DNA of 64,000 bases from positions 3,744,001 to 3,808,000 of the forward strand of contig OY969763.1 of NCBI GenBank assembly GCA_963702845.1, in the 5' to 3' direction. The stretch is from an uncultured Verrucomicrobiae bacterium. Its GTDB lineage: Bacteria; Verrucomicrobiota; Verrucomicrobiia; Limisphaerales; Palsa-1400. Position 1 is the stretch's first letter; every line of letters begins with the position of its first letter. The translations under genes and the position numbers were made by a program. The notes under the pieces were generated by a model. That model was given only the letters and a program-made list of their open reading frames with translations. It had not been told where the DNA came from and did not search any database. Positions 10,095-49,026 of the stretch are shown piece by piece.

Positions 10095-10184
10095 TGGCGG
10101 AGGGGGAGGGATTCGAACCCCCGGTGCGGTTTCCCGCACAGCGGTTTTCAAGACCGCCGCAATAGACCACTCTGCCACCCCTCC
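10095..10184 (-). tRNA. tRNA-Ser(TGA)
   Basis: Cloverleaf with long variable arm, anticodon loop CTTGAAA, GGTTCGAATCC, 3' CCA. Confidence 0.96.
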
Positions 10185-10217
10185 ACTCAAACTTCAACTC
10201 TCATTTTCAAACAAGAG

Positions 10218-10293
10218 TGGCACGGCGGGAGGGACTTGAACCCCCAACCGACGGTTTTGGAGACCGCTACTCTACCAATTGAGCTACCGCCGT
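10218..10293 (-). tRNA. tRNA-Trp(CCA)
   Basis: 76 nt, anticodon loop CTCCAAA, GGTTCAAGTCC, 3' CCA. Confidence 0.97.
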
Positions 10294-10407
10294 TGCCTGT
10301 AGCGTCCCAGTTTCGAGATCGTATCGCAGATTTATCCTGCGAACCGCCGTCTCACCAGGTTCGGAGCGCAAGAGGGAGCCGCATTGAGCGACTCCCTCTG
10401 TGAAAAA

Positions 10408-11598
<1,191 letters not shown>

Positions 11599-11724
11599 TG
11601 CTGACTCCTACTTTTATTTGTTTTAGTTTCTTCTTGTTAACAATTGTTTGTTTCGCGCATCGGCCTCAGCCGCCGCGATGTTCTCATCTAATTCGCTCCG
11701 CATTCCGCCTCTCACTCCCGAAAA

Positions 11725-11800
11725 TGGAGCCCATGATCAGGATTGAACTGATGACCTCGTCCTTACCAAGGACGTGCTCTACCAACTGAGCTACATGGGC
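11725..11800 (-). tRNA. tRNA-Thr(GGT)
   Basis: 76 nt, anticodon loop TTGGTAA, 3' CCA. Confidence 0.97.
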
Positions 11801-27926: not shown

Positions 27927-28259
27927 TCAGGGCTTGCTTGTCTTCTTACGTTTCTTGTTCGGCGCAGCCTGTGCAATTGCGCTCAATATCGCCGGCAGAT
28001 TCTCGATGGTGACCAACTGTCCTTCGTCGACGATGTAATGGGGCTTTGCTCCCGGATAAGGCGCGCCCTTTTCACAAACGTTCTCCAGTTCGCTGCTGGC
28101 AGGAACGATCTTCACATAGAACAAATTGTCGCAAATGAGTCCAACCACCTTGCCGTCGGCATACAACGCGTATTCGCCGAACATCGCGCGCGCAGCAAAG
28201 TCACCGCGTCCGCGCAGCCTCTCCAAAATGAATTCAACCGTTTCCTTGCATGTCGCCAT
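27927..28259 (-). CDS. TfoX/Sxy N-terminal domain protein
   Basis: ARAMFGEYALYADGKVVGLICDNLFYVK; PYPGAKP. Confidence 0.88.
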   Translation of the reverse strand: MATCKETVEFILERLRGRGDFAARAMFGEYALYADGKVVGLICDNLFYVKIVPASSELENVCEKGAPYPGAKPHYIVDEGQLVTIENLPAILSAIAQAAPNKKRKKTSKP

Positions 28260-28409
28260 AAGGGCTTCAATCAATGTCAGGCGCTGACTCTCTTCTCCGT
28301 TGTTCGCCCGACGGCTGCACCATTACCATACTGAAATGGAAGTAACACTGCCAAAGCCTTTAGAAGCGCGGCTCTCGCCGAACTTGCTTCGCCAGTTTAC
28401 TACATAATA

Positions 28410-28512
28410 TTGACACACCGTAACTTTACTATACAATCCCTTCAGCCGCCGGTCCTTACCGGCACTGGGGACCGTCAAAAATGTGCGACTTTCCCCGGTT
28501 CGTTCTTTGAAA
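28410..28512 (+). promoter_or_regulatory. Stable-RNA-type promoter, hairpin and boxA-like element (locus A)
   Basis: TTGACA 28410-15, 16 bp, TACAAT 28432-37, hairpin 28448-63, CGTTCTTTGAAA 28501-12. Confidence 0.6.
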
Positions 28513-28547
28513 ACCGCACCAAAAGTGCAACTTAATCCCCACCGAAA

Positions 28548-28762
28548 GTGGAACAATGTGCGGGAATGTGGGACAATGTGTGACAATGTGCGACTTTCCC
28601 GTGATATTTTTAGTCCGCATTGCGAGGCCGACGTTCGGCCTTTGACAAAAGTAGAAACATTTCCTTCTACGGTGGCCGCGTGCAAACGCCTCCACTTGGC
28701 AACTAATTGCCGGAAGTAGAAGGAAGTTGCCAGAAGTAGAAACATTCCGACGATATTTTTTC
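28548..28762 (+). repeat. Two 10-bp-period repeat blocks (..caATGTG and ..GAAGT(A/T)G), each followed by GATATTTTT
   Basis: gaacaatgtg cgggaatgtg ggacaatgtg tgacaatgtg cgactttccc; cggaagtaga aggaagttgc cagaagtaga. Confidence 0.8.
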
Positions 28763-28874
28763 GAGGAGCCAATGCCGATCAGACGACGCGCGCGGAGCCG
28801 GAACGTCCGGTTCGCCAACGCGCCCTACCTATGTGAAACCGGGGAGCGCCGAGTTCAGTCTGCTCCGGCCTTCC

Positions 28875-31800
28875 TCATGGAATTACCTGGACGCGATAGA
28901 GCTGGACGGTGTTCGTCGAGGTCGGCGTTTGCGTAAACGTTTGAGTGGATGCCTGGCCCGGCGGCGCGGGGTCGGTTTCGGTCGCGGCATCACGAGCGAT
29001 GTCGGTGAAGGGACCGCCGGCGCTCGAGGCGTATTGCAACCGGTATCGCTTGCCACCGATGGACGACCATGTGACGGTCAGCTGTCCATCCGGTTGCATG
29101 TTCGCGTCGAGAATCCGGAATGCGGACGTGGCGCTAGTCGGATCTGTCCCCGCGAGGTATTCGGCGTAATTACTTTGTCCATCGCCATCGTTATCGGCGG
29201 CAGAGTCGGTGATGCCGTAACGTGCTTTCCATTTCTCATAATCCCCTGCACTCACCAGGAAGGGATGGGTAGAGCCAGCGGAAGAATCCAGTTCAGCCGG
29301 CGTCAGCACTCGATTGTGGAAGCGTATGCGATCGAGATTGCCGGTGAACCAATTCGCGCCCTCCGATGCCGCTCCGATGGTAATCTCCCCACTTGTGCGA
29401 TAGCCCGCCCCGTTGGTGTAAACCACGGTGGCGGAGAGCGCCCCATCAATATAAAATTTCATGTCCGTGCCATCGGTGTGAACGACGGCCACATGATGCC
29501 ACGCTGCGTCATTCGGGACGGTCGCGGTGCTGGCGATGTCCTTAATCTTGAAGGTGGTGGTGAATAGCGTCCGGTTGGTGTTGATCGAAAATGCGAATCC
29601 CGGTTTGCGCTCGTATTGGAATAGAATAGCCCTTTGCGCCGGCGCGTAATTCAACGGCAGTTTTACCCAGGCCTCGAGGGTGTAGTCATCGTTGAACGGA
29701 TTAGGGCCGATGATCTGTTTCGGATCGGGAACGGTTATTTTTTTGAAGCCATTGAAATTGAGTGAGAAATCGCCGGTGTGACCGCTGGGTGAGTTGGTGT
29801 TCCACGGCGGTGTCGTTGTGCCGTCGGATTGCAAGCCGCCGACGGCATCGGTCACAGTCGTTCCCGTGCCCTCATCAAATGGGAAAGAGAATCCGATCGA
29901 ATGATTGGTCGTGCTGGTCAGGATGAAATCCGTGATCACCGGGTAATGGTCCGAAGCTTCAATCGTGTAGCCAACGAAAGCGTTGGTGGGCTTGATCGTC
30001 GTCCCGGTCGCCTTCCAAATGTAATCGATTCGCGCATTCAAATTATTCGGATATCCCGGCGAGGGAACCGTCCGGCCCAGGCCCCCATCTCCGGCGGTCG
30101 TCCAGCTATCATTCCAACTATCGTCCATTCGGCTGTAAACCGAGCTGTCGGGCGTGTCATTGAAATCCCCGCAAATCATCGTCGGAAAAGTTTCATCCAA
30201 GAGCCAGAGGTTGATGTTTGTCGCGCACATCAGCCGCTCGGTGCTGTCGGCGTGGAAATCCAAATGCGTGCTCTCGAAGGTGACGTACTTGCCGTTGACA
30301 TCGACGATCGCCTTGAGCCAGCCGCGTTGTTCGTTGCCGTTGATGTTCGGCAAGAGACGGTGATCGCGGAATAAAATCGGGAAGCTCGACAGGATTGCGT
30401 TTCCAAATTCCTGGCCAGCGGGGAGGCCTTGCATGTTGTTGCTGAAAACGAAGGGCAGGCCGGTTTTTTGCGAGATTTCGGCGATGATGTCGCGACCATT
30501 TGAGCGCGGCATGTTGCGAGCAACTTCGTTAAGAGAGATCAAATCGATGTGGTTTGTGGTGATGAAATTCGAGACGCGCGTTGTATCGATGTTGCCGGTT
30601 ACCGGGTCTGCGCCGGAGTGGATGTTGTAAGTCATCACGCGGAAGATGCTGTTGGTTTCCACGGCAATGACTTTGAGTGCGACGACGCCGGGAGTAATGA
30701 AAATCAGTGCGCGAAGGTTGGCTTTCAACCCCGAGCCGGTGATGACGGGGGTGAGGTTGAATGTGCCACTTCGCGTGCCGGTGTAGGTGAGCAGCGAGTA
30801 ACTTCCCGCGCCGAGTGTTCCGCCGGAGATGTTCACGGTGATCGTATTATTGTTGAGGGTCAGACCGCCGGTCACGCTGATGGCGCCGACGGCTCCGGTG
30901 GCGCCGTTGACTGGAATCGAAAGGCTGGAGCCGGAACCGAACGTCGTCGAACCGTTGATCGTGCCCGTTCCGGAGGCTGCCTCGCGTGTGACGGTTTGCG
31001 AGGCCGCAAAAGCAAAACCGGACGAAACGTTTAGCGTCGTGCCGCTGGCAATTGTGATCAGTGGCGAACTGGCGATGGAGCCGCTTGATCCAATCGTCAA
31101 AGCGCCGGAGTTGATCGTGGTGTTGCCGGTGTAGGTGTTGGCGGCGCTCAAGGTAAGCGTTCCCGCGTCGTTCTTCGTCAATGCTCCAGCACCACTGACT
31201 ACGCCACTGATTGTCGTGTTTCCGATGCCATCAACACTCAGCGTCTGGCCACCGCTGACGCCTCCGCTGATTGTTAGTGTTCCCGAATCAGATTGGACGG
31301 TTGACGCGCTACCGAGGGTAACGATTCCGCTCCAGCTATTATTGCCGCTGATGTTTCGCAACGCTCCGTTTCCGCTGATGCCGCTTCCATTAATTGTCAG
31401 CGGCTGAGCGCTGACGGCGATGCCGCCTTGCAGTTCCAAAGCGGTACCGCTGCTCACGCTCACCGCTCCTGCTCCGCCGAGCGCAGTGGCATTCTGAACA
31501 TTCAACACGCCACTGTTCACCGCCGTTGCACCGGTGAAAGTGCTCGCGCTGCTCAAGGTCAATGTGCCCGAACCCGCTTTGGCCAGACTCCCCGTCCCTG
31601 AAATGCTCCCCGCGTAGGTTGTCGAGTTACCGTCACCAACGGTCAACGTGCCCGCACCGAGATTGATCAGACTGCCCGTGCTGCCGGACAGAGAACCAAT
31701 CGTTTCGTTAAACCCATTCAAGTCCAACAGGCCACTGGCAGAAATCGTTACCGCCGAGGTTGAGATTTGATCGGCCGCCGCGAGTCGGACCACGTCCGCG

Positions 31801-33989
31801 CTTGCTCCTCCGACGCCATCGCCAACGGTGAGATTGCCCGCGACCGCATTGACGCCAGCGGTTTTCGCCAACAGAAGCGTTCCTGAATTTACAGTTGTCA
31901 GGCCGGAATACGTGTTGGCGCTCGCCCCTGAAAGTTGAAGTGTTCCCGCGCCATTTTTCGTCAGCGCACCCGCGCCGCTGATGATCCCGCTAACCGTAGT
32001 GCTGCCCGCGCCATCAACCGTCAACGTCTGGCCGCCGCTGACGCCTCCGCTGATTGTTAGTGTTCCCGAATCAGATTGGACGGTTGACGCACTGCCGAGA
32101 GTGACGGTTCCGCTCCAGCTGTTATTGCCGCTGACATTTCGCAACGCACCGTTTGCGCTGGTGCCGGTTCCGTTAATTGTCAGAGGCTGAGCGCTGACAA
32201 CGATGCCACCTTGCAGTTCCAAAGCCGTACCGCTGCTCACGCTCACCGATCCTGCTCCGCCGAGCCCAGTGGCATTCTGAACATTCAACACGCCGCTGTT
32301 TACCGCCGTTGCACCGGTGAAAGTGCTCGCGCTGCTCAAGGTCAATGTGCCCGATCCTGCTTTGGCCATACCGCCCGTCCCTGAAATGCTCCCTGCGTAG
32401 GTTGTCGAGTTACCATCGCCAACGGTCAACGTGCCCACACCGAGATTGACTAGACCGCCCGTGCTGCCTGACAGGGAACCAAGCGTTTCGTTAAACCCGT
32501 TCAGGTCTAACAGGCCGCTGGCAGAGATCGTTACCGCCGAGGTAGAAATTTGATCGGCTGCCGCGAGTCGGACCACGTCCGCGCTTGCGCCTCCAACACC
32601 ATCGCCAACGGTGAGATTGCCCGCGACCGCGTTGACGCCAGCGGTTTTCGCCAACAGGAGCGTTCCTGAATTTACTGTTGTCATGCCCGAATACGTGTTG
32701 GCGCTCGCCCCCGAAAGTTGAAGTGTTCCCGCGCCATTTTTCGTCAGCGCGCCTGTGCCACTTACAACACCACTGATGGTGGCGTTGCCGGCACCATCCG
32801 CGGTCAAAGTTTGCCCGCCGTTCGCGACGGTTCCGCCGAGTGTGAGTGTTCCGGCGTCTGATTGAAGGCGCAATGCGCCGGACGACGTCACCGGTGCGTT
32901 GATGGTGTTGTTGCCAGACGAATTGGTGATCGCGCTGCTAACGGTTAGCGCATTTCCATAAATTGCAAAACCACCAGTGTTAAATTTGAGCCATGGGACA
33001 GTGAGCGCGCTGAGGTCATTTGTGTTCACTGTGCGTGTCGAGCCCCCGAAAATCAGCAGGTCGCCGTTGCCGGGAACCGCGCCGCCCCAGTTGGTGCTGT
33101 TGCTCCAGTTGCCGGTTGTCCCAGCGCCGGTCCATGTGCGCGGGCCGGATTTCCAGGTCATTGAATAATTGTCGAATGTGATAGGCCCTGCTCCCGGTGC
33201 GATGTCAAACATGATGTGACGGCCCGAGGCGTTTAGACGCCAGCCGTTTGGCAAATCGGAGTCGGCGGCCGTGTCGTAAAACCATGTTGAGCCGCCGTCG
33301 AGCGAGAGTTGCACCCGCGAATGGAACGCGGTGGTTTCCGCTCCGGCGTCGGTGACGCGCATGAGGACGATGATTTCCGTTCCGAAAGTGTTGGCGGCGA
33401 GCGTGGTAATGGCCGAGTTCAAATCAGCAGCGAGGCCGGAGGCGGTCGTATCAATGCGTTTGCCGATGAGGTATTTCGTCATCGTGCTGTTGGTGCGATA
33501 GATTTGAAAACCAAAAGCCCAACTGAAGGCATCGCTTTCAATGGTTCCAAGAGCGAACGAGCATCGTTGATTGTCTGAGGAAGCGTTTTTGATGCTGATC
33601 GAGAGGTCGTAGACGACGGGAGTGGATGGCGTGGCTGCGGCAATTCCCAAGGCGCTGGAAAAGTCGTATGAGCTGGCGCCGTCGGAAGAGAGGACAAAAC
33701 GACCAGGATCGGTGGCGACGTTGATTTGGATTTTGCTGGAGGTTATGGTGAAGGCGCTGGCCGGTTTGATGGCTGTTGGAAAGTAACGAAGGTTTGCGAT
33801 GGTGGAACCTGTGAGACGAGTGGTCGGCGGATTGATGCCGCGATTGACGCCGGTGTCCAGCGCGAAACCCGACCCTGAACCCGTCACGTTGCAATTATCG
33901 CTGACAATCACCGTCGCCCCCCGCACATGCCCGCAGGCAAAAACGGCCAAAAACGCGAACACCAACGTTTGTATGCGGATAATATTCAT
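28875..33989 (-). CDS. Large secreted protein: autotransporter-associated beta-strand repeats, endonuclease/exonuclease/phosphatase domain, LamG domain, C-terminal DxDGDG/FYR-type domain
   Basis: LTKNGAGTL.LS..NTY.G.TTVN.G repeats; MTYNIH, GDFND, RIDYI, SDHYPV; WHHVAVV...FYIDG; DNDGDGQSNYAEYLAGTDP; ATG 33989. Confidence 0.9.
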   Translation of the reverse strand: MNIIRIQTLVFAFLAVFACGHVRGATVIVSDNCNVTGSGSGFALDTGVNRGINPPTTRLTGSTIANLRYFPTAIKPASAFTITSSKIQINVATDPGRFVLSSDGASSYDFSSALGIAAATPSTPVVYDLSISIKNASSDNQRCSFALGTIESDAFSWAFGFQIYRTNSTMTKYLIGKRIDTTASGLAADLNSAITTLAANTFGTEIIVLMRVTDAGAETTAFHSRVQLSLDGGSTWFYDTAADSDLPNGWRLNASGRHIMFDIAPGAGPITFDNYSMTWKSGPRTWTGAGTTGNWSNSTNWGGAVPGNGDLLIFGGSTRTVNTNDLSALTVPWLKFNTGGFAIYGNALTVSSAITNSSGNNTINAPVTSSGALRLQSDAGTLTLGGTVANGGQTLTADGAGNATISGVVSGTGALTKNGAGTLQLSGASANTYSGMTTVNSGTLLLAKTAGVNAVAGNLTVGDGVGGASADVVRLAAADQISTSAVTISASGLLDLNGFNETLGSLSGSTGGLVNLGVGTLTVGDGNSTTYAGSISGTGGMAKAGSGTLTLSSASTFTGATAVNSGVLNVQNATGLGGAGSVSVSSGTALELQGGIVVSAQPLTINGTGTSANGALRNVSGNNSWSGTVTLGSASTVQSDSGTLTISGGVSGGQTLTVDGAGSTTVSGIISGAGALTKNGAGTLQLSGASANTYSGLTTVNSGTLLLAKTAGVNAVAGNLTVGDGVGGASADVVRLAAADQISTSAVTISASGLLDLNGFNETIGSLSGSTGSLINLGAGTLTVGDGNSTTYAGSISGTGSLAKAGSGTLTLSSASTFTGATAVNSGVLNVQNATALGGAGAVSVSSGTALELQGGIAVSAQPLTINGSGISGNGALRNISGNNSWSGIVTLGSASTVQSDSGTLTISGGVSGGQTLSVDGIGNTTISGVVSGAGALTKNDAGTLTLSAANTYTGNTTINSGALTIGSSGSIASSPLITIASGTTLNVSSGFAFAASQTVTREAASGTGTINGSTTFGSGSSLSIPVNGATGAVGAISVTGGLTLNNNTITVNISGGTLGAGSYSLLTYTGTRSGTFNLTPVITGSGLKANLRALIFITPGVVALKVIAVETNSIFRVMTYNIHSGADPVTGNIDTTRVSNFITTNHIDLISLNEVARNMPRSNGRDIIAEISQKTGLPFVFSNNMQGLPAGQEFGNAILSSFPILFRDHRLLPNINGNEQRGWLKAIVDVNGKYVTFESTHLDFHADSTERLMCATNINLWLLDETFPTMICGDFNDTPDSSVYSRMDDSWNDSWTTAGDGGLGRTVPSPGYPNNLNARIDYIWKATGTTIKPTNAFVGYTIEASDHYPVITDFILTSTTNHSIGFSFPFDEGTGTTVTDAVGGLQSDGTTTPPWNTNSPSGHTGDFSLNFNGFKKITVPDPKQIIGPNPFNDDYTLEAWVKLPLNYAPAQRAILFQYERKPGFAFSINTNRTLFTTTFKIKDIASTATVPNDAAWHHVAVVHTDGTDMKFYIDGALSATVVYTNGAGYRTSGEITIGAASEGANWFTGNLDRIRFHNRVLTPAELDSSAGSTHPFLVSAGDYEKWKARYGITDSAADNDGDGQSNYAEYLAGTDPTSATSAFRILDANMQPDGQLTVTWSSIGGKRYRLQYASSAGGPFTDIARDAATETDPAPPGQASTQTFTQTPTSTNTVQLYRVQVIP
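31187..32752 (-). repeat. Intragenic tandem duplication, 783-bp (261-aa) unit, two copies
   Basis: 31261 matches 32044 and 31921 matches 32704; high nucleotide similarity; boundaries approximate. Confidence 0.9.
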
Positions 33990-34291
33990 AGACGTGCAGA
34001 GTTTGTCCCACGTCTGCAAGGGTTGGGGTTCAGGCCTTGCACCGAAAACATGGCAAAACACGATCCGACCATCGGATCGTAACGGCAGGCGAAAACCTGC
34101 CGTGTTTTGTCATGGGGACTTACCTGATTAGAACAATAAATCACCCGTGTCAACAATACCCGCAAACGAGGGTGACCCGTTTCCAATCACGGTAGCCTTC
34201 CCACGGTTGGTTTCGTCCTCAACTAGCGGTTAAATGGCCTGAAATCTTCGATTGCGTGGTTTTACGTTAGGCGTTTATGATGCACGGGCCA

Positions 34292-48233: not shown

Positions 48234-48240
48234 AAGCGGA

Positions 48241-48750
48241 AAAAAACTACTGCGACTAGGCGCGACCCAGTGCGACTAGGCGCGACCCAGTGCGACTAGG
48301 CGCGACCCAGTGCGACTGGGTGCGACCAGGTGCGACAAACCGATGAGTAGTCGCACCCGAGTCGCAGTTGGGTCGCAGCACCAGTTGAGGGCCGGAAAAA
48401 ACAGTTTTGGTTACCGTTACCTTCGGTTGGTTACCGTTGGTTACCGGGGTCGTCAGTTCGCGCGAAGAGGATTGAGCTGTAACGGCTAAACAATCTTTTA
48501 TTTTGCCGTTAGGAAGTGTTAGCGGGCGATAGCAGGTGTTAGATAACGTTAACGGATTCCACGGCAAAAGGCCGATCAGTGGAGCGGGAATTAAAGGATT
48601 CCTTATTTTTGTGTCAGAAGGTGTCCGAAGGTGACATGTAACGTCGAATGAGTTAACCGCTGAATACGCAGATGGCGCGGAAGGGGGCGGGAAAAAAATG
48701 ATTTTTTTTAAAATCGATATTAACCGGTACAACTCGATACTGCCCGGTAC
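48241..48750 (-). repeat. Five distinct 10-bp-period repeat blocks, each bounded by an A/T tract (locus B)
   Basis: Plus-strand cores: GCGAC x9 (48251-48336, with 3 inverted copies 48350-48377), GTTAC (48409-48446), GTTA (48507-48552), GTG(T/A)C (48611-48635), G(A/G)TA (48716-48750). Confidence 0.85.
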
Positions 48751-48917
48751 GTGTGAGCAAAGGACGCAGAATAAAGCATGAAAGATGAAGTTGAGATAGC
48801 GCCGAAACGGTGAGGATTGACGGGCACACCGCTGGCGTCCGCCTTTGCGCGGCTACGGCGCGACAAGCGAGATTTGTTCGCGGTTTTGTTGCGGGTCGCA
48901 TAGCTGTAAATTTCAGA

Positions 48918-49026
48918 TTTCAAAGATCGCGCTTTAGCGATTCAATTCAGGGCTTCGGAAAGACCTTCTATTGATTCCTACCCAAGTAGGGGTGAAGGAG
49001 TTTACTATAACGTTGCTGTATGTCAA
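48918..49026 (-). promoter_or_regulatory. Stable-RNA-type promoter, hairpin and boxA-like element (locus B)
   Basis: TTGACA 49026-21, 16 bp, TAAACT 49004-48999, hairpin 48977-90, CGATCTTTGAAA 48929-18. Confidence 0.6.

Follow-up and report, generated by a model that had tools for sequence, protein, structure and literature searches.

What is a promoter with a boxA for when no gene follows it? The question is raised by locus A, found in a 64,000-nucleotide stretch of DNA (the window) from an uncultured Verrucomicrobiae bacterium. The genome that carries it is designated G000; positions are those of the window, and features are on the plus strand unless marked minus. The initial annotation had described the locus as an rRNA-like promoter and boxA followed by two blocks of 10-bp repeats, and had suggested that it gives rise to an antiterminated, untranslated RNA.

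Structure and Surroundings of Locus A

The 5' edge of the repeated unit is formed by a segment containing the word (A/G)CTACA (28393-28409), where conservation is 0.73 versus 0.46 farther upstream. It is followed by a sigma70-type promoter, TTGACA-16-TACAAT (28410-28437), which agrees with the consensus at 11 of 12 positions and belongs to a class common to stand-alone terS genes and head genes. The promoter spacer holds an operator-like motif, GTAACTTT (28420-28427), for which the family consensus is near G(C/T)(A/T)ACTTCA. Two hairpins come next, the first with six pairs and boxB-like in its position (28448-28463), the second (28465-28499) enclosing a lone A-type unit (28480-28495). They are followed by a boxA, GTTCTTTGAAA (28502-28512), in which 10 of the 11 columns are invariant in eight copies.

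The A block (28544-28611) contains five period-10 units with an A(A/T)GTG core at 28544-28593, with GATATTTTT next, at 28603; the end unit matches the spacer motif, and a T tract closes the block. The joint (28625-28647) is a short palindrome running into a second, partial boxA, CTTTGACA. A 16-mer of this palindrome occurs 22 times in the genome, and the same partial boxA is elsewhere the head of copies that have only a B block. In locus A, the palindrome and the partial second boxA join an A-type unit to a body of the B type. The body comprises a lone B-type unit (28649-28661), a 12-bp insertion (28671-28682) found in the locus A copy only among 19 aligned B blocks, and the B block itself (28712-28761), with three period-10 GAAGT(A/T)G units at 28712-28741, GATATTTTT next, at 28752, the spacer motif in reverse orientation and a T tract. 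Promoter, hairpin, boxA, both period-10 blocks and the block ends had all been placed correctly in the initial annotation. Its observation that a lone copy of the last unit of each block stands upstream of that block is likewise real; the copies are an exact 16-mer at 28480/28585 and a 20-mer at 28642/28727 with 90% identity.

The unit is flanked by a divergent TfoX_N gene (27927-28274, minus) and a convergent gene for a large PATR/LamG/EEP protein (28875-34061, minus), both outside it. The convergent direction of the next gene had been noted before and is borne out; a 5' UTR is rejected on this ground, and a small open reading frame was also considered and rejected. Locus A is set among unrelated host genes, outside any phage or satellite genome, and viral contigs gave no match to its B block. 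A query with the neighbouring TfoX protein, meant to locate an empty site for comparison, found nothing in five relatives. A 431-nt stretch of the locus folds better than its shuffles (z -4.05). Rfam gave no match at locus A, its only hits in the window being three tRNA genes at 10098-11800 (minus).

The Promoter-boxA Leader

In the eight copies of the unit found by BLAST, conservation is 0.98 for the -35 and -10 boxes and 0.99 for boxA, while it is 0.78 for the spacer, 0.86-0.89 for the A-block columns and 0.46 for the flank (0.46-0.55 over flank and joint). The leader hairpins stay paired via G-U pairs and double changes; for hairpin 1, 11 sequences display three G-U cells, three double changes and one broken pair. 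Comparison with the boxA of the host rRNA operons, a check suggested in the initial annotation, shows that the two match. The host rrn variants are GTTCTTTGACA and GTTCTTTAACA in the spacer and GCTCATTGAAA in the leader, and the locus A boxA is one change away from the spacer variant GTTCTTTGACA. Sister-species copies have switched to the other host rrn variant, TCATTGAAA. Both NusB and Rho are encoded in the host genome. Taken together, the promoter-boxA leader looks functional, as judged from its sequence.

As a correction to the initial annotation, the promoter itself has no specific likeness to rRNA promoters. Two candidate rrn promoters were read upstream of the 16S gene. Neither has the conserved spacer motif, and the 16-bp spacer, earlier taken as an rrn trait, is absent from the one with TTGACA. 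No rRNA or tRNA gene was found by Rfam behind the locus A leader, and the single 16S gene lies elsewhere. Operons known to be headed by a boxA are those of rRNA, suhB and CRISPR (PMC13753749). Locus A resembles such leaders in having promoter, hairpin and boxA before untranslated repeats in a host with NusB and Rho, but it differs from the rrn and CRISPR cases in having neither rRNA nor a repeat-spacer structure, and in that its tandem 10-mers are linked to terminase genes. A CRISPR array was rejected, the 10-mers being in tandem without spacers and Rfam giving no CRISPR match.

A Multi-Copy Family in the Genome

BLAST with locus A detects 28 clusters in G000. There are six other full-length copies with 78-84% identity, and others have the promoter and only one of the two blocks in common with locus A. 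A genome scan for promoter plus boxA, with matrices trained on 35 of the resulting matches, gave 64 matches versus 5 and 14 in the reversed and complemented controls. After six had been dropped by eye (five weak, one duplicate), 58 units were kept. A period-10 array is found in 51 of these, versus 76 of 992 other intergenic regions, which confirms the expectation that further loci with this layout would exist. The gene downstream is on the same strand for 35 units and convergent for 23, locus A included, and the units have no leading-strand bias (26/58). The 4-mer autocorrelation at lag 10 is 0.037, versus 0.006 for the rest of the intergenic DNA. BLAST copies, scan and autocorrelation show the layout to be beyond chance. 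Across the genome, 174 loci hold a total of 294 non-coding period-10 arrays, representing dozens of different words, and most finish with an A/T tract. A separate abundant repeat class, 213 non-coding period-7 arrays, is also present.

The window holds a second family member (48240-49026, minus), which has a promoter, a variant boxA and a stack of about six modules. Two of these modules match arrays that lead TerS genes in a sister genome, and the unit lies upstream of an oligopeptidase A-like gene. Other units lie upstream of glnS, gltX, hisS, valS, rpsO, rpsJ and rpsA (L176, L177, L178, L179, L180, L181 and L182), these cases having been chosen by eye from the 58. Split genes, even glnS, suggest indel errors in the assembly.

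Among 40 relatives the boxA-headed form was found in the same genus only. A looser promoter-boxA pattern gave 0-4 matches in each of nine genomes from other genera, which lacked the spacer motif as judged by the printed match alone. With a promoter-only pattern, G001 was not above its control (9 versus 21) and G002 modestly above (29 versus 15). A transposase gene, which we take to be IS3-like, interrupts one sister-genome leader copy just past boxA (L003:700-1330). For the units themselves, a MITE or other non-autonomous transposon was rejected; inspection by eye of the flanks of 23 copies displayed neither terminal inverted repeats nor target-site duplication.

Linkage to Small-Terminase-Like Genes

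G000 encodes several families of stand-alone HTH proteins that match PHROG terminase small subunits (phrog_426, E 8e-10; phrog_6299, E 9e-21). Of 151 genomes of the order, 22 carry one TerS family, and several of them have 11-18 copies of it. For the array family in general, direct repeats occur at terS promoters or gene starts.

Period-10 arrays track stand-alone TerS-like genes. In relatives, 24 of 28 loci (the 30 returned minus two from G000) have an array between -300 and +900 relative to the TerS-like match. Among control windows, which cover 395 kb in ten of these genomes, 13 of 316 have one. Periods of 8, 9, 11 and 12 are seen at 5, 8, 0 and 5 of these 28 loci, respectively. The arrays lie at the start or the end of the gene, often abutting the start codon, and terS-terL pairs carry an array and an A/T tract immediately 5' of the ATG. 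In G000 an array lies within 800 bp at 22 of 39 terminase-like loci versus 312 of 3879 genes. A terminase-like gene is found within 1.5 kb of only 21 of the 174 array loci and 3 of the 58 boxA units. None of the five TerS-TerL pairs that belong to intact capsid-forming elements has an array closer than 5.8 kb, and the two TerS loci of relatives in a prophage context have none beside the gene. The arrays therefore mark stand-alone TerS and not ordinary pac sites.

TerS and TerL pairs have dN/dS of about 0.14-0.38. The acidic nuclease motifs and Walker B of TerL look intact in all six aligned sequences. The structure model of TerS is weak (pLDDT 67), and neither Foldseek with this model (top row Sf6 TerS, E 2.5) nor a PDB sequence search gave anything significant. 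In a tree of 32 TerS domains, one clade of 15 (100/99) largely shares one word across host families; the clade that holds this genus has long branches, with a different word on almost every branch. Array word and TerS tree are correlated (Mantel rho 0.37, 0/999 permutations), but this is not proof of binding, because kin share both and ancestry alone could give the match.

This correlation bears on the idea that the arrays are operators for some other protein that binds DNA head to tail, the TerS link reflecting shared regulation only. Proteins of the BldC, excisionase and Apl type do bind promoter-located direct repeats spaced by one turn of the helix, the arrangement seen here (PMC5859096; PMC7498355). 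Compared by description, the present arrays differ in being linked to terminase-small-subunit-like proteins and stacked behind boxA. Dozens of words would moreover require dozens of paralogues, and the words change with the TerS tree. Inspection by eye of the 28 biggest clusters of small proteins revealed TerS-like families and no large family of the BldC/Apl kind, and we hold such operators to be very improbable. Arm sites of integrases were rejected, no array being near the integrases viewed.

For locus A, the tie to TerS consists of family membership and the shared motif, since scans of genome contigs, metagenomes and viruses yielded no gene-leading copy of its own A or B block. With the A-type pattern, the genome contigs gave one chance match in coding sequence and eight matches in a Chloroflexaceae MAG, all of the latter to copies of a palindromic repeat that is unrelated to this family. 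The metagenomes gave five chance matches only, and the viral scans no match to the block patterns. The Chloroflexaceae repeat (L086-L093) is long and multi-copy, and its central palindrome differs by subfamily. Two species carry arrays with different words just 5' of the same host gene, presumably thiE-like (L022 and G000 3388842).

Gene-Less Modules as Leader Copies

TerS and TerL leader arrays of sister genomes recur in the G000 units without a reading frame. At 14 gene-less loci, 21 of 21 hits to such modules are sense to the promoter (one self-hit and repeats of one family included), and the modules mostly lack an ATG. On sequence grounds, the gene-less modules are copies of terminase leader arrays. 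The best G000 matches to four sister TerS proteins have only 34-56% identity, and G000 thus has words for TerS variants that it does not encode.

At orthologous sites, which are occupied across species, the unit is kept in G002 while its modules differ. The one case of polarity is the site before glnS, where the two genomes have the distal modules in common but not those next to the leader. Whole 10-bp units have been gained and lost between copies, and at G000 273580 an array is followed by a truncated terL start, a second array and a lost ATG.

A rival reading takes the units for remnants of terS-terL cassettes, or for non-autonomous repeats of them that are copied passively. At most the promoter leader would then be retained, to allow read-through into neighbouring genes. 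The locus at 273580, the turnover of 10-bp units, the replacement of modules at orthologous sites in sister genomes and the restriction of the boxA-headed form to the genus all agree with it. Against it, the A-block columns are better conserved (0.86-0.89) than flank and joint, the sites remain occupied across species, and 23 of the 58 units face a convergent gene, as locus A does. We judge this reading to be unlikely.

A DNA or an RNA Site

At 33 promoters of the class, including terS, protease-capsid and adaptor-portal-terL promoters, a period-10 TTTCCCT array lies upstream of the -35 box. These arrays can act as DNA only, because that DNA is untranscribed. In the body of locus A a matrix of the spacer motif gives nine matches, on both strands, versus 2.0+/-1.4 in 1000 base shuffles. 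Folding of the arrays has no strand preference (z -1.99 sense, -1.88 antisense, n=57).

CsrB/RsmZ-type sponge RNAs are non-coding and repeat many times a site that also occurs where translation begins. The non-coding units of this family could be compared with them, and the TerS-like proteins would then bind 10-nt mRNA repeats just before the start codons of terS and terL, thereby controlling translation, while antiterminated gene-less transcripts carrying leader copies would titrate them. The most conserved parts of the unit being boxA, -35 and -10, the switch of the sister boxA to TCATTGAAA and the G-U pairs in the leader hairpins speak for such an RNA. So do the 21 of 21 sense modules, mostly without ATG, and class promoters that aim into 58 of the 174 array loci and away from 7. 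Furthermore, no boxA was found upstream of the translated terS genes examined. An RNA role accounts for the conserved boxA and the uniform sense orientation of the modules no less well than a DNA role does. However, the sense orientation is also expected from descent and recombination, period-10 arrays occur on untranscribed DNA too, the promoter spacer contains the word, which locus A carries in either orientation, and the folding is strand-neutral. The units also differ from CsrB/RsmZ in having many words, no series of GGA-loop hairpins and no Rfam match. HTH terminase subunits bind DNA, which also speaks against the sponge RNA, and we regard it as rather unlikely.

The untranslated RNA proposed in the initial annotation is partly supported. 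The boxA match, NusB and Rho, the conserved leader, the hairpin pairing and the many like loci make it plausible that locus A gives an antiterminated non-coding transcript. RNA as the whole story is unsupported, as is the view that the function is beyond any statement: the repeats are tied to TerS-like genes, arrays also lie upstream of -35 and the folding is strand-neutral.

Relation to Known Packaging Sites

The pac site of SPP1 has direct repeats across promoters and the start of the gene, and TerS represses transcription there; for SF6, the TerS domain shows little sequence specificity in its binding to pac repeats (PMC4737164). The present family shares with SPP1/SF6 the direct repeats over promoter and terS start, the HTH small terminase and a promoter inside the bound region. 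It differs in its strict period-10 rows of three to eight units with dozens of words and in its about 170 chromosomal loci, mostly gene-less, with stacked modules and a boxA leader, and intact packaging modules here are mostly without arrays. In island-mediated generalized transduction a separate SaPI TerS directs packaging from pseudo-pac sites across the host chromosome (PMC6687093). The separately encoded TerS and the dispersed chromosomal sites have their likeness here, where they are read from sequence. The SaPI sites are homologues of one pac, whereas those of G000 are multi-word composite cassettes with their own promoter. Judged by what defines them, the pac, rrn and CRISPR families do not include the present one. 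Titles and abstract openings in the literature revealed no paper on terminase-linked arrays behind antiterminated promoters, and terminase-derived phased arrays stacked behind such promoters are a real and apparently undescribed architecture.

A Model for Locus A

The blocks are likely to be DNA docking sites set in rows, with one site to each turn of the helix, and would serve on the chromosome as mimics of pac sites. For locus A as a whole, we give a probability of about 45% to stacked docking arrays that mimic packaging sites and have antiterminated transcription running through them. According to this model, an oligomer of a TerS-like HTH protein would bind the phased words, the word of locus A being the promoter-spacer motif. 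The best candidate for its binder is the TerS type that lies divergent from such arrays (G000 1875xxx and 1783xxx; G002 L158). The modules would derive from terS and terL leaders, copied minus the reading frame, and recombination would have shuffled them between loci, so that the resulting stacks hold the words of many TerS variants. The boxA leader would sustain Rho-resistant transcription across the untranslated array, and occupation of promoter and blocks by TerS would end it; this shut-off is modelled on the repression by SPP1 TerS of its own promoter. Bound TerS might then draw the terminase to host DNA, away from an invading element, and the terminase might start headful packaging of the chromosome.

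In G000 a tail-less head module with protease, capsid, adaptor, portal and TerL lies among host genes (L175:1999-11251; G000 5239999-5249251), and the promoter class of the terS genes drives this module as well. Of the head, packaging and tail genes that a gene transfer agent keeps in the chromosome, those for head and packaging were present, and the tape-measure and baseplate-J families were not found. Similar compact head modules are seen in G094, G051, G116, G169 and G034. A capsid query found nothing in the TerS-rich genomes G004, G092 and G134.

A wider and more speculative reading, which we consider improbable at present, is that the genus keeps a dispersed, updatable library of terminase words. 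Leader arrays of many TerS variants, unencoded ones included, would be stacked behind antiterminated promoters and swapped over time, capturing incoming or resident terminases by DNA or RNA decoy, and would thereby both blunt packaging parasites and make the whole chromosome cargo for tail-less heads.

Natural pac sites show weak sequence rules, which is partly why site choice by small terminases is an open question. Here each of dozens of TerS variants comes with a short word in strict phase, and together they offer a ready set of protein-site pairs for this problem. If the gene-less stacks are functional, the bacterium places packaging signals, or decoys, about every 28 kb (median gap) along its chromosome. 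If true, gene transfer or defence would here take a route that is so far undescribed, and boxA antitermination would be put to a new use.
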